Part shown: positions 1,992 to 13,206 of the stretch, piece after piece
How the letters are laid out: the number at the start of each line of letters is the position of its first letter
Position numbering within the stretch: position 1 is the stretch's first letter
Assembly: GCF_030384885.1 (NCBI RefSeq)
Contig: NZ_CP128613.1
Length of the DNA stretch: 64,000 nucleotides
Reading direction: 5' to 3' (one strand)
Source of the DNA: Escherichia coli
GTDB taxonomy: Bacteria; Pseudomonadota; Gammaproteobacteria; Enterobacterales; Enterobacteriaceae
The notes under the pieces: model-generated
The model's database searches: none
What the model saw: only the letters and a program-made list of their open reading frames with translations
Told to the model about the DNA's origin: nothing
Position numbers and translations under genes: made by a program

Positions 1992-4900
1992 TTATTTCAT
2001 CGCCTCCTCGCCCGTTGCCGTATTGGCATCCACCGCGGTAATGGTCACCGTCACTGGCTTCATTTCGTACCCGCCATAGGTCAGGGCGTTAAATGTGAAC
2101 GTATAGACACCAGGCTTGCTGGTACTAAATGTACGCGTGATTTTTCCGCTCACGAAATGGTCATTTTTCGACGGCAGGAACTGATAATCCTTCTCCGTCA
2201 CCCCTTCCGGCGTCTGAATGTCGACCCACATATTCCCGCCAACGGGGTTATTTGCCGACATCAGGGTCACCTCCAGCTTCGCAGTCGATTTCCCATCCGC
2301 CACCAGAGATTGCACATCAGATGATGCGGCGAGCACCGCGTTTTTATCATCCGCCACGAAACTGGATTCAGCCGTTTTCGTTGATACCTGACCGTTGTCC
2401 TGACTCACTTGCGCCGTAAGTGTATATTTCGCTGCAACAGTCGTGGTGGCGGTGAAAATAGCCTGCCCTTGCTCATTCGTTGTCGCTGTGCCATTCGGTT
2501 CCAGGTTTAACGAAGCCGGGCTGGCGGTCAGCGTCACTTCGCTATCTTTCAACAAATTGTTATTGGCATCAGTCACCGTAACTTTATACGTCTGTTTGGC
2601 TTTGCCATCCGCCACTGCACGGTTGCCAATCACCTCAATACTGGAGATGGTCGCCGTAGTCTTATCCGCCACAAACGTAATGCTCTTCGCGTCTGAAGGC
2701 TGGTTATTTCCTGCTGAAGCCGTGATCTCATACGTTCCGGCAGTCACTGAAACCACCTGCAACTCTGCTTTCCCCTCATCGTTGGCTTTCACCCAGACAT
2801 TATCGCCAGTAAGCGGTTTGACACCCCGGGGCAGATTAAATGTCACCAGAGTTCCTGGAACAGGGTTACCGTTTTTATCCTCAACGGTCGCCGTCAGCGT
2901 AAAGGCATCTTTGCCGTTTGCCACTTTTTGAGCGGCAGTGTCAACCTGCAGGTTTGCCTGACCGGTGCTGGCGTCTGCGTTGAATTTCACCGTGACCGTC
3001 TTCTGAGCATTATTCACTGAGGCCGTGATACTGTGTTCCCCAGCAACGGTTGCTATCAACTCAATGTCCGCTTTACCTGCCGCATTGGTTGTTACTGTAT
3101 TCCCCGTCTTGCTAGTCACACCCTGCGGTAAAGTCAGCGTAACTTCTTGCCCCTGCAACGGGTTACCATAGCTGTCCACGACGGTCAGGGTTACCTGGTT
3201 AGCAGACTGTCCATTTGCCAGTTGGTTATTCACCTTCACCGCCATATCACTGATCACTGCCCGGGAAGCGTCGCCTGCAACATTCAGCACCAATGGCTGA
3301 GCAACGGCATTTTGGCCGTTCACGCGTGGCATGACAGACAACTGACCTGCAGCCGATCCCAGCGTTAAGGTCGACACGTAGACCCCATTACCTTTCTCTG
3401 TCCAGTTTCCTGCTGAAGGACGCTCACTCCCCGTGCTGGCGGCACCGCTAAACACTGGTGCATCTGGCTTCAGCCCGGTGACCGGGTTCCCGTACGCATC
3501 CTTCACGGTGAAGGTGAGTTCCGTCGTCGTTTTAACCGTTGGAGTCTTATTGTCCGCAACAAGCGTAGAGTTCGCTGATGACATCTCCCCGGCGATGACC
3601 GTCAACTGCGCGGCTTCGGTGGCTGCTGGCTGGCCGTTGAAGAGCGGCATGACACGAAGCTCGCCCGTCTTTCCGCCTGTGGTCAACGTAGCAACATAGG
3701 AACCGTCACCTTTTTCGGTCCAACTGGAAATAGTCGCCCCTTCAGAGGCGGTCCCCGTCAAACTTGCCGACAACGAAAGACCACTGATAGCGTTGCCATG
3801 CGCATCTTTCGCCACCAGCGTCACGGTTGTGCTTTCGCCTGCTTTTACGCGATCTGCGGCTACAGACACTGTCGACTGGCCTGAAGATAACGCATCAGCC
3901 ACCACGGTTACTTTTGCCGCGTTTGCTGCCGCGTCCTGCCCATTGAGCTTCGGCATAACCTCTAATTCACCCGCCGTAGAGCCGAGAGTAATTTGCGCAG
4001 TCCACGTCCCATCACCATTATTTGTCCAGCCCGATGCCGTAGAACCTACAGCAGCGGCACCCGCTAATGACGGCGCTTCCGGCGTGAGGCTGGTCACAGG
4101 GTTGTCATAGGCATCTTTTGCCGTCCAGATTGCCGTAACTGTACCGCCAACCACCGGTTTATCAGGATTCAGTGTGATGGACGAATGTGCTGCATCAAGC
4201 GGCCCGGCAACAAACTTCAGCGTTTGTTGTAACGTGCCCAGCTGATACTGCTCGCTGAAGGCACGCACAACAACGTTTCCGGCACGGGTCGAAGAAACCG
4301 TGGCGCTGTAAACCCCTGGTTTTATTTCCGAAATGGCACCAACGGTTACACCATTAGTGTCTTGCGGAACAAGTCGCAGGCGGCTGGCTTCTCCCGTCAC
4401 CGGATTACCCTCGGAGTCCACCGCTGTCAGTGTCAGCGTGTAGGCTTGCTGACCATCAGCAACCACATCACCTGACGGCTCGTTAGCGCTCAGGGTGGAG
4501 TTTGCCACATCCATCATCGTGGCCCGCAGTTCTGCAGTGACAGTTTTGCTCATGTCATCAACGCTAACAGTAATCGTTACCTCACCTGACTGCGTTCCGG
4601 TAGTAAAGACAGACTGATACACCCCTGCTTCAGTTTCGGTGAACTCACCCAGTGTGGGTTTTGCCTGTGATTTAGTGGCCTTCAGGGTACGAGTCACAAT
4701 ATTTCCAGCCGGTTTGAAGGTTAGTTCAGTCTTGATCTGATCTTTCATGCCCGTGACTGGCTGGCCCTCGGCGTCGCGCAGAGACAGCACCAGCGGCTTT
4801 TGCTCATTACCGTTAGCAAGCATTTGAATACTGCTCTGACCGTCAAGCGTTAACGCCGTACGATCGGCGCTCATACCAGCTCCGCTAATAACCACTTCTG

Positions 4901-10399: not shown

Positions 10400-11542
10400 A
10401 TGACAAATAAACACCCATCATTGTTTTCTCCTTTTATGCTGACAGAAAAAATAAAGCTACGTAATCGTATCGTTATGGCCCCTATGACGACCTGGTCAGC
10501 GAATCCTGATGGAACCATCTCTGAGCAAGAACTCGAATTTTATAAACGCCGCTCACAAAATGTTGGTTTAGTAATAACAGGATGTACCTATGTCACGCCA
10601 AGCGGCATTGGGTTTACTCATGAATTTGCCGCATATGACGACCGTTTCATTAACAGCCTTGAAAAGTTAGCAGCGGCAGCCCAAAGTGGGGGTGCTCCGG
10701 CTATTTTGCAGATTTTCCACGCCGGTAATAAAGCCATCCCGGAGCTTGTACCAAATAACGATGTTATTAGTGCCAGCGCATCAAGCGTAAAATCTGGTGA
10801 CTTTATGAAGAGAGTGGTACAAAGCAGGGAAATGACTGAAAACGAAATTCAGGAAACCATTAGAGCATTCGGAGATGTCACAAAAAGGGCGATTAAAGCA
10901 GGTTTTGATGGCATTGAACTTCATGGTGCGCACGGATTCCTTCTACAGAATTTCTTCTCCCCTCTATTTAACCAGCGTAATGACCGATGGGGAGGAGATC
11001 TCGAAGGACGTATGCGCTTCCCGCTGGCCGTATTACAGGAAGTAAAAAATGTAGTCTATGAATATGCGACAAAGCCCTTTGCCATCGGTTACAGAATATC
11101 TCCTGAAGAATCTGCAACAGGGGGGCTGCGGATAGAGGATACTTATAAACTCCTTGATCGGCTCATTTCATCCGGTATTTCGTATATACATACCTCGCTG
11201 GTCAGTATTAACGATAGCTACCCTGTTGAGTCGCCAAATGGCCCCCGAACTATTGAATTGATTTTAAATCATATTGCAGGCAGAGTGCCGGTAATCGCTG
11301 CAGGTAAAATACGCACACCGTCTCAGGCTCAAGAAGCAATTTCCACTGGCCTGCCACTTGTTGCGATCGGTAAAGGGCTGGTGATAAATCCAGAATGGGT
11401 GACTTTAGCTGAATCAGGTAGAGGCCATGAAATTCAAACAACCCTTAATCCACAACTTGTTCCTGAATTAACCATTCCGGATAAACTATGGGATCAAATT
11501 CAGACATCGAAAGGAACTGGCTGGTTTCCGTTAATGGATTAA
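10400..11542 (+). CDS. NADH:flavin oxidoreductase (Old Yellow Enzyme family)
   Basis: 380-aa ORF; RIVMAPMTT.. and HGAHGFLL motifs typical of OYE/NemA-type reductases. Confidence 0.75.
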   Translation: MTNKHPSLFSPFMLTEKIKLRNRIVMAPMTTWSANPDGTISEQELEFYKRRSQNVGLVITGCTYVTPSGIGFTHEFAAYDDRFINSLEKLAAAAQSGGAPAILQIFHAGNKAIPELVPNNDVISASASSVKSGDFMKRVVQSREMTENEIQETIRAFGDVTKRAIKAGFDGIELHGAHGFLLQNFFSPLFNQRNDRWGGDLEGRMRFPLAVLQEVKNVVYEYATKPFAIGYRISPEESATGGLRIEDTYKLLDRLISSGISYIHTSLVSINDSYPVESPNGPRTIELILNHIAGRVPVIAAGKIRTPSQAQEAISTGLPLVAIGKGLVINPEWVTLAESGRGHEIQTTLNPQLVPELTIPDKLWDQIQTSKGTGWFPLMD

Positions 11543-12014
11543 ATATCTATTACTCTCCCGAGAGTAAAACTATCAAACCAATGAGTAACCGATACAGCCT
11601 CGCAAATTCTTTCAGATAATTAACCCGTCACTGCGGCACGTTCTCTCATAAGGCGTGCCTGCTGTGTAATCCAGTATGTATCCGGCATACTTGACGGTTT
11701 AATAGAACTCAATTCCTTTCCCAGGTTACCAACAACGATATCTTGTATAACACCCCAGGAGATACGACATTATGATGAGATGAGGTATGCTCCTCAGCGC
11801 CAATCAACGCCAGGGCTGGGCCAGTTTTGAGATCAGACTCATTCCCGGACTGACTTCAGGCGACATATATCAATGACGTTGGGGCAATAAAAGATAGCCG
11901 ATGTAATACATCTATTCAAATTTGTGATACATGTCAAAAAATTGGTTGACCAAACTCGTTATTTATATAAGGGCACTTACGAAGTGCACTCTTTTTTAAA
12001 GCGAGGAAGTACCA

Positions 12015-12116
12015 ATGAAAGAGAATAAAGTACAGCAAATCAGTCATAAACTGATTAATATCGTTGTTTTTGTCGCAATTGTAGAATACGCCTATTTATT
12101 TCTCCATTTCTATTAA
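12015..12116 (+). CDS. ykgR: small membrane protein (33 aa)
   Basis: ATG at 12015 with GAGGA RBS; MKENKVQQISHKLINIVVFVAIVEYAYLFLHFY; below ORF-track length cutoff; position relative to ykgM fits recollection of ykgR. Confidence 0.4.
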   Translation: MKENKVQQISHKLINIVVFVAIVEYAYLFLHFY

Positions 12117-12452
12117 TAACGGCAATAAACTGTTCACTTCAGTGATATTTAAAATATGCATCCTCTCCCTTTTTTTTAAGTAATTATTATATTCGTGGGG
12201 GAGGAATACACGCTGTCAGGTAATCAATCAAACTGCGATAAATCATCGGCCAGTAAAGTGGAGATAGCCTCCATTCTCGAAAAATTCATACTCTCAGCGA
12301 AACCATCATCAATCACTCATCCAGGCGTTTATGGGAGCGTCGCCAATGGCTGCTAACAATGCCAGACTTCCCCGTTGCCGAAATTCCACATACCACAAAT
12401 GGTCACAGGAATTGGGTGTTGAAATGATTCGGATGAGCATGTATCTTTACGG

Positions 12453-12468
12453 TTATGTTATAACATAA
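12453..12468 (+). promoter_or_regulatory. candidate Zur box (palindrome TTATGTTATAACATAA) overlapping ykgM promoter
   Basis: 16-bp perfect palindrome 10 bp upstream of ykgM start; resembles Zur operator core; ykgM-type L31 paralogues are classically Zur-repressed. Confidence 0.55.
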
Positions 12469-12477
12469 CAGGTAAAA

Positions 12478-12744
12478 ATGATGAAACCCAATATCCATCC
12501 TGAGTATCGTACTGTGGTGTTCCATGACACCAGTGTTGATGAGTACTTTAAAATCGGCTCGACTATCAAAACAGACCGTGAGATTGAGCTGGATGGCGTA
12601 ACGTATCCGTACGTGACAATTGATGTCTCTTCGAAATCGCACCCGTTCTATACAGGGAAGCTGAGAACAGTGGCATCAGAAGGAAATGTTGCACGGTTCA
12701 CCCAACGTTTTGGTCGTTTTGTTAGCACGAAAAAGGGGGCGTGA
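12478..12744 (+). CDS. ykgM: ribosomal protein L31 paralogue (zinc-independent type B)
   Basis: 88-aa [27 protein letters not shown]...; lacks the Cys zinc ribbon. Confidence 0.9.
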
Positions 12745-12884
12745 TGAAAGTCCTTAACTCTCTGCGTACCGCAAAAGAACGCCATCCAGACTGTCAGATT
12801 GTGAAGCGAAAAGGACGGCTGTATGTGATTTGTAAATCTAATCCACGTTTTAAGGCCGTTCAGGGACGTAAGAAAAAGCGTTGA
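12744..12884 (+). CDS. ykgO: ribosomal protein L36 paralogue (46 aa)
   Basis: ATG overlapping ykgM stop (TGATG); [46 protein letters not shown]; not in ORF track (below cutoff). Confidence 0.85.
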
Positions 12885-12935
12885 TTCATAATTCGCCGGA
12901 TTAACGATATTTGTCTGATTAATAATCAGACCGGA

Positions 12936-12974
12936 TTAATGTTGGTGTATTGATTACACCAACATTAATTTTCC
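12936..12974 (+). terminator. rho-independent terminator after ykgMO
   Basis: Perfect 14-15 bp stem ATTAATGTTGGTGTA/TACACCAACATTAAT followed by TTTT. Confidence 0.6.
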
Positions 12975-13206
12975 TGGAAATATATTCTTTAAGTTCATTT
13001 AAAGCCAACTGCCTGACGTTTCTCTCTGAATATTCCATTATATTCATGTTGATTTATTGACCAACTTCTCCCCTGTATGCTGGTATCAACTCTCTTTTAG
13101 ACTGAACAAGCCACTCCGCCCCCTCCCTTTGCGGAGCAGCCTGCATTTACACTCAAACTGTTAAGATGATAAATGTGGTAAATCTGTTGGTACTAACATA
13201 AAACGT

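Follow-up and report, generated by a model that had tools for sequence, protein, structure and literature searches.

Several small inner-membrane proteins of Escherichia coli work with a larger partner: AcrZ with AcrB, MgtS with MgtA and PitA, MgrB with PhoQ, and CydX with cytochrome bd. Like YkgR, they are of similar size, carry one transmembrane helix and are encoded by short, separately regulated genes, and several of them were screened beside YkgR as substrates of the site-2 intramembrane protease RseP (PMC10470546). The likeness lies in a possible mode of action and does not define a family, and no partner or phenotype has been reported for YkgR. Another close counterpart is YohP (27 aa), the E. 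coli model for SRP targeting after translation and also a single-helix protein associated with stationary phase or stress; it cross-links to SRP once released from the ribosome and, as with YkgR, its length is too short for co-translational targeting (PMC7549839, PMC10502375). The two sequences are unrelated, and whereas the full insertion pathway of YohP has been shown (SecYEG or YidC, with dependence on FtsY), YkgR has been shown to contact SRP only (PMC7549839). The Hok, Ibs, Ldr and TisB type I toxins are likewise small, hydrophobic peptides with a single helix; of these, HokB and HokE share with YkgR the property of being RseP substrates (PMC10470546).

YkgR itself is already known: K-12 annotations have included it for years, and experiments on it have been published. 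Chromosomal tagging and expression of YkgR, together with membrane fractionation, are reportedly covered by Hemm 2008 and Fontaine 2011. The protein is described as stationary-phase induced (PMC10502375). Plasmid-encoded His-tagged YkgR is detected in vivo upon arabinose induction, and in vitro-made YkgR(V6pBpa) cross-links to SRP; because this cross-link is puromycin-insensitive and is gone when membrane vesicles are added, recognition by SRP is post-translational (PMC7549839). A review states that membrane insertion of YkgR is not spontaneous (PMC12648545), and RseP work places the protein among the Class I substrates, positive in four of four assays (PMC10470546). Both the SRP and the RseP experiments used tagged or overproduced protein.

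Identity of the ykgR gene and its product

The DNA analyzed here is a single 64-kb stretch, referred to as the window, in which a preliminary description had pointed to an unlisted 33-codon membrane-peptide gene upstream of ykgM. We are highly confident that this feature is E. coli ykgR (b4671), a monocistronic and independently transcribed gene. Its translated part comprises two elements:

12003–12007, + strand: Shine-Dalgarno sequence GAGGA, with 8 nt from GAGG to ATG
12015–12116, + strand: ykgR coding sequence, 33 codons plus stop, whose product is the small inner-membrane protein YkgR

The reading frame is present exactly as had been claimed, from ATG to TAA, and its translation, MKENKVQQISHKLINIVVFVAIVEYAYLFLHFY, is identical to YkgR (b4671) of K-12 MG1655 at 33 of 33 residues. 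In the closest genome, 2013C-4282, whose RefSeq coordinates equal those of the window over the first 13.9 kb, the same interval carries the label 'ykgR, small membrane protein YkgR' (WP_000662258.1). Searched with a 651-nt query that spans the ORF, 2013C-4282 gives 100% identity, and 5085 of the 5426 complete E. coli genomes contain a match. In addition, the NCBIfam equivalog NF041474 recognizes the product with 78.1 bits (cutoff 40, E = 2.6e-22) and covers residues 1–33 of 33, and precomputed Pfam annotation of the orthologues gives PF28062:YkgR. A search of a local Pfam-A copy with YkgR returned zero matches, PF28062 being present in the newer precomputed annotation, and a search of the solved structures in the PDB found no relative. 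The view that a genuine small membrane-peptide gene had escaped a length filter is therefore borne out, the gene being annotated both in RefSeq and in K-12; the word 'unlisted' was accurate for the length-filtered ORF list from which the preliminary description worked but does not extend further, as public annotation, the NF041474 model and published experiments all exist.

The placement upstream of ykgM was also correct. On the + strand ykgR is followed by ykgM (12481–12744, ribosomal protein L31 type B) and ykgO (12744–12884, L36 type B), and the order in K-12 is the same. Compared with K-12, this strain has the same protein, the same Shine-Dalgarno sequence and the same strand and position relative to ykgM-ykgO; positions 11903–12116 are 100% identical, with no differences in the gene itself. 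Only the upstream context differs: here an intact gene for a 380-aa NADH-dependent flavin oxidoreductase (10400–11542) stands where K-12 has kept only its last ~90 nt, the pseudogene ykgP, with eaeH' and IS3 after it. The oxidoreductase gene is itself preceded by genes for an alpha/beta hydrolase and a LysR regulator. On the other side, an internal stop interrupts ykgL (12919–13146, − strand) in the closest strain, where it is annotated as a pseudogene, and the gene is intact, at 75 codons, in K-12.

The product has the character that had been proposed for it, that of a hydrophobic single helix. Its 12 N-terminal residues are lysine-rich, the N-terminus (MKENKVQQISHK) being short and positively charged with a net charge of +2, and the hydrophobic segment that follows reaches the C-terminus. 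Its Kyte-Doolittle hydropathy peaks at 2.21 for a segment of 17 residues (INIVVFVAIVEYAYLFL), and the value over 19 residues is 2.0. An AlphaFold2 model, built from an alignment of five Escherichia orthologues, consists of one continuous helix over residues 2–32 with a mean pLDDT of 91. The hydrophobic helix is long enough to span the bilayer, as is required of small single-pass inner-membrane proteins (≤50 aa).

How often would such an ORF arise by chance? We counted ORFs on both strands that begin with ATG, have 25–50 codons, follow an SD-like motif and contain a 17-residue segment with hydropathy of at least 2.0. ykgR is the sole ORF in the 64-kb window that satisfies these criteria, and at least one comparable ORF occurs in 23 of 100 dinucleotide-preserving shuffles of the window (mean 0.24). 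By themselves, then, the sequence features of ykgR exceed chance weakly; they are suggestive, not compelling. The certainty that ykgR is a gene comes from the comparative and annotation evidence and not from these features.

Conservation and distribution of the reading frame

Alignment of orthologous Escherichia loci reveals a conservation island of ~260 bp with sharp edges, from ~11903 to ~12165. Identity to other Escherichia species, block by block, is as follows:

Upstream flank: 34–65%
Promoter block: 86–97%
Leader: 80–100%
ORF: 86–95%
3′ block: 69–88%
Downstream flank: 23–40%

Within this island, start, stop, length and Shine-Dalgarno sequence are all kept, without indels, in E. albertii, E. 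whittamii, Escherichia sp. E1V33 and E. coli E69. The GAGGA itself is invariant across the orthologous loci, in keeping with the good ribosome binding site that had been noted. Across the divergent loci 27 of the 33 residues are invariant, the variable sites fall on codon positions 1, 2 and 3 in the ratio 4/1/14, and pairwise pN/pS is 0.03–0.23. This pattern clearly indicates a reading frame under purifying selection. Loss of the frame in close relatives, which had been put forward as grounds for rejecting the gene, was looked for and not found. The suggested check, conservation across Enterobacteriaceae, held in part: start, stop and frame are kept in four divergent Escherichia lineages, but the searches described below found no relatives elsewhere in the family.

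The even conservation across the island allows a different reading, in which a conserved non-coding element, either a regulatory region or a small RNA, happens to contain an open frame and no functional protein is made. The frequency of comparable ORFs in the shuffled windows would permit it, and the non-coding promoter block and leader are indeed as conserved as the ORF (80–100% versus 86–95%). The distribution of substitutions over codon positions effectively refutes this reading, to which we assign almost no probability. The low pN/pS and the retention of start, stop and Shine-Dalgarno sequence without indels also speak against a chance frame, as do the curated equivalog model, the lack of any Rfam family match and the published detection of the protein and its handling by SRP and RseP (PMC7549839, PMC10470546).

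ykgR is common within E. coli: with short flanks it is found in 5066 of 5426 complete genomes, at an identity of at least 99% in 4545 records, and the median is one place per genome. An exhaustive HMMER search of 1.84 billion representative proteins returned only nine relatives, each at least 66% identical. A pattern scan of one genome per species (100,044 species) placed the gene in E. coli, E. albertii, E. whittamii and Escherichia sp. E1V33 and, contaminants excepted, did not find it outside Escherichia; the scan uses short peptide patterns, which very divergent relatives could escape. The distribution thus appears confined to the genus Escherichia, narrower than Enterobacteriaceae.

Several apparent relatives were set aside. 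Matches in Sulfoacidibacillus thermotolerans Y002 and Alkalicoccobacillus porphyridii P16 lie on tiny contigs (403 and 264 nt) with 100% identity to the K-12 DNA around ykgR; they are laboratory E. coli contamination of public Bacillota assemblies. Three candidate protein variants (P0002, P0006 and P0007) are chimeras whose C-termini are translated Nextera adapter (CTGTCTCTTATACACATCT...) at contig ends. The adapter can be seen at positions 3079–3106 of locus L003, at the end of its contig, and such chimeras swell the apparent diversity of the YkgR family. A candidate distant homologue (P0009, at positions 2700–3700 of locus L004, GCA_900603405.1) was rejected because its assembly is full of 1–2-nt indels relative to K-12. 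In that assembly ykgR contains two compensated frameshifts and ykgM is in fragments, most likely an assembly error and not a real variant.

Promoter, leader and surroundings of the transcript

Upstream of the Shine-Dalgarno sequence, the island contains the following elements:

11923–11938, + strand: CRP-like site TGTGATACATGTCAAA, one mismatch to TGTGA-N6-TCACA, centered at 11930.5
11942–11953, no strand assigned: near-palindrome TTGGTTGACCAA with arms TTGGT/ACCAA, which contains TTGACC (11946–11951); conserved in every orthologous locus
11960–11965, + strand: TATTTA, an overlapping A/T-rich alternative −10 hexamer, one example of several
11964–11969, + strand: TATATA, the −10 candidate of the preliminary description; conserved, TATAGA in E. 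albertii
11973–11987, + strand: hairpin GCACTT-ACG-AAGTGC, 6 bp with a 3-nt loop, then TCTTTTTT; T-run at 11992–11997

The promoter originally suggested combined TTGACC with TATATA. Both hexamers are there, 46–69 nt 5′ of the ATG, but the spacer between them is 12 nt (11952–11963) and a sigma-70 promoter requires 16–18 nt between −35 and −10, which excludes the two as one sigma-70 promoter. A consensus promoter scan called nothing at these hexamers. TTGACC may instead belong to an operator, with the near-palindrome TTGGTTGACCAA serving some regulator and not as a −35 element.

CRP activation of ykgR is reportedly described by Hemm et al. 2010 (J Bacteriol 192:46) in their abstract. The window contains three CRP-like sites against 1.86 expected, and the count alone is not significant. 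Comparison of six Escherichia loci is more informative about TGTGATACATGTCAAA: TGTGA is invariant, TCAAA is kept in five of the six, and the substitutions fall mostly in the N6 spacer, the pattern expected for a CRP site, for which TGTGATACATGTCAAA is a candidate. Because its center at 11930.5 would then sit at −41.5, we place the start at ~11972; the arrangement would be that of a class II CRP-dependent promoter with transcription of ykgR beginning at ~11971–11973. A start at 11972 implies TATTTA or something similar as the −10, and such a hexamer is poor and has no T at −7. The conserved CRP-like site and the covarying hairpin described below appear to fit a CRP-dependent promoter with a start at ~11972 better than they fit TTGACC/TATATA.

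The hairpin lies in the 5′ leader of ykgR, between the promoter region and the ribosome binding site, and was picked up as a terminator-like match in our scan. As RNA it reads GCACUU-ACG-AAGUGC and is directly followed by UCUUUUUU. None of the six pairs is lost in more than one of the six Escherichia sequences, and one pair changes from A-U through G-U to G-C; because the pairs are kept and one of them covaries, the hairpin has been selected as RNA. The fold of the ykgR leader has an energy of −12.4 kcal/mol (z = −2.0). In E. albertii there is no co-directional upstream gene to terminate, which is why we assign the hairpin to the ykgR transcript and not to the end of another. Its position fits a start at or before 11973 and argues against TATATA as the −10, because the start that TATATA would specify falls inside the stem. 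The hairpin would thus form the extreme 5′ end of the ykgR mRNA, where it could act as a 5′ stabilizer or, with the U-run, as a leader attenuator.

An Rfam search of the region assigned no family; the one match, to IS009 at 11684–11752, is weak and meaningless, scoring 15 bits where the gathering score is 117. The supplementary tables of an E. coli 3′-end mapping study do not mention ykgR (PMC7815308).

These observations bear on whether the transcript does more than encode YkgR. It might be a dual-function RNA, specifying the peptide and also acting as a base-pairing regulator in the manner of AzuCR, or the hairpin and U-run might form a regulated attenuator. The non-coding parts (leader hairpin, TTGGTTGACCAA and the downstream element GTGATATTTAAAATATG) are as conserved as the ORF, the hairpin shows covariation and has a U-run after it, and AzuC, a similarly CRP-regulated small-protein mRNA, turned out to be dual-function (PMC8915982). 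Set against this, the absence of ykgR from the 3′-end tables just mentioned, the shortness of the hairpin at 6 bp, and the simpler explanation of upstream-block conservation by promoter and operator sites make a second function of the RNA unlikely in our judgment. If true, it would make the ~260-bp ykgR island more than a protein gene and would explain its conserved non-coding parts.

The structured leader also invites comparison with the type I toxins, in which ykgR would be a Hok/Ibs/Ldr-like toxin gene under antisense RNA control. The peptide is of the right kind, a structured leader can sequester the region of the Shine-Dalgarno sequence and start codon, and RseP cleaves YkgR as well as HokB and HokE (PMC10470546). 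The antisense side is where this comparison fails. The sole antisense promoter-like site in the gene, TGGAGA-17-TACAAT (12106 to 12078), loses its −10 in other species, in which ATTGTA becomes GTTGTA or GTTGTT. An antisense 21-codon ORF at 12096–12161 is not conserved and was rejected, since neither E. albertii nor E. whittamii retains its start. In addition, and again different from the known type I toxins, ykgR is a single-copy locus without an Rfam match to an antitoxin or toxin leader, and the passages on pBAD overproduction of YkgR for western blotting make no mention of toxicity (PMC7549839). We regard a toxin identity as extremely improbable. The monocistronic, putatively CRP-dependent small-protein gene remains our preferred reading, and its 3′ side contains two further elements:

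12117–12165, + strand: conserved 3′ block after the stop codon, the end of the island; includes GTGATATTTAAAATATG at 12142–12158
12162–12204, + strand: inverted repeat CCTCTCCC (12162–12169) / GGGGGAGG (12197–12204), with an A/T-rich loop of 27 nt and a T8 run inside

GTGATATTTAAAATATG, 26 nt 3′ of the ykgR stop codon, is near-invariant from E. coli to E. albertii and E. whittamii, and the sequence farther downstream is unalignable between species. In K-12 the arms of the inverted repeat match perfectly over 8 bp, and E1V33, E. albertii and E. whittamii preserve the repeat in part. The ykgR transcript may end in this structure; the RNAalifold covariation term for the repeat is unfavorable (+1.08), and on these grounds we rejected it as a proven structure.

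Beyond the island lies the zinc-responsive ykgM-ykgO operon. A consensus scan finds a promoter for it, TTGAAA-17-TATCTT, at 12419–12447. Directly after this promoter, and 11 nt before the ykgM start region, is a Zur-box-like palindrome, GTTATGTTATAACATAAC (12452–12469), which we take to be the Zur operator. Its placement agrees with the zinc regulation known for the L31B/L36B paralogues. Identical promoter hexamers are given for ykgMO in PMC3946193.

The adjacency raises the question of whether ykgR is a leader peptide or uORF that controls ykgMO. ykgR precedes ykgM on the same strand by 364 nt, and the two are adjacent in both E. coli and E. albertii, where ykgM-ykgO lies downstream of ykgR and the upstream genes are unrelated. 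Because ykgMO has its own promoter and Zur-box-like palindrome directly before ykgM, and because the flanks of ykgR differ between species, we conclude that ykgR is an autonomous module and not a ykgMO leader. The spacer at 12216–12400 is unconserved, with 23–40% identity, and in E. whittamii and E. coli E69 the 3 kb downstream of ykgR contain no ykgM (the E1V33 contig stops 1.5 kb downstream of the gene). In O157:H7 the match stops at position 468 of the 651-nt query, so that the sequence before ykgM differs there, and purifying selection on the peptide sequence would be unusual for a mere leader. A leader function therefore has, in our estimate, only the slightest chance of being correct.

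One published mutation falls into the same interval. A T>C substitution between ykgM and ykgR suppresses the phenotype of a ydgH deletion on agar with the detergents benzethonium or benzalkonium chloride (PMC11705850). The site, 308,687 in BW25113, corresponds to window position ~12282, ~199 nt upstream of the ykgM ATG. It falls neither in the Zur box nor in the conserved ykgR island, and lies within a non-conserved 53-codon GTG ORF (12195–12356).

A possible role for YkgR in the membrane

RseP generally cleaves N-in/C-out (type II) proteins. On the strength of this preference and of the positive-inside rule, we infer an N-in/C-out topology for YkgR, in which the lysine-rich N-terminus would face the cytoplasm. 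SRP-bound YkgR could then follow the route demonstrated for YohP, through SecYEG or YidC.

Along the helix, the polar residues N15, E24, Y25, Y27 and H31 are invariant. By analogy with AcrZ, MgtS, MgrB and CydX, YkgR probably works by docking its helix onto a larger inner-membrane protein, and these residues would give partner specificity. We predict that docking occurs under conditions in which cAMP-CRP is active or in stationary phase, and that RseP controls the turnover of YkgR.

With the gene already in public annotation, the locus offers little discovery value here. It does serve as a positive control, because a true 33-codon gene was picked from 64 kb by a sequence-only reading that relied on the ribosome binding site and hydropathy. 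YkgR also serves as a model substrate in work on SRP targeting and RseP proteolysis.
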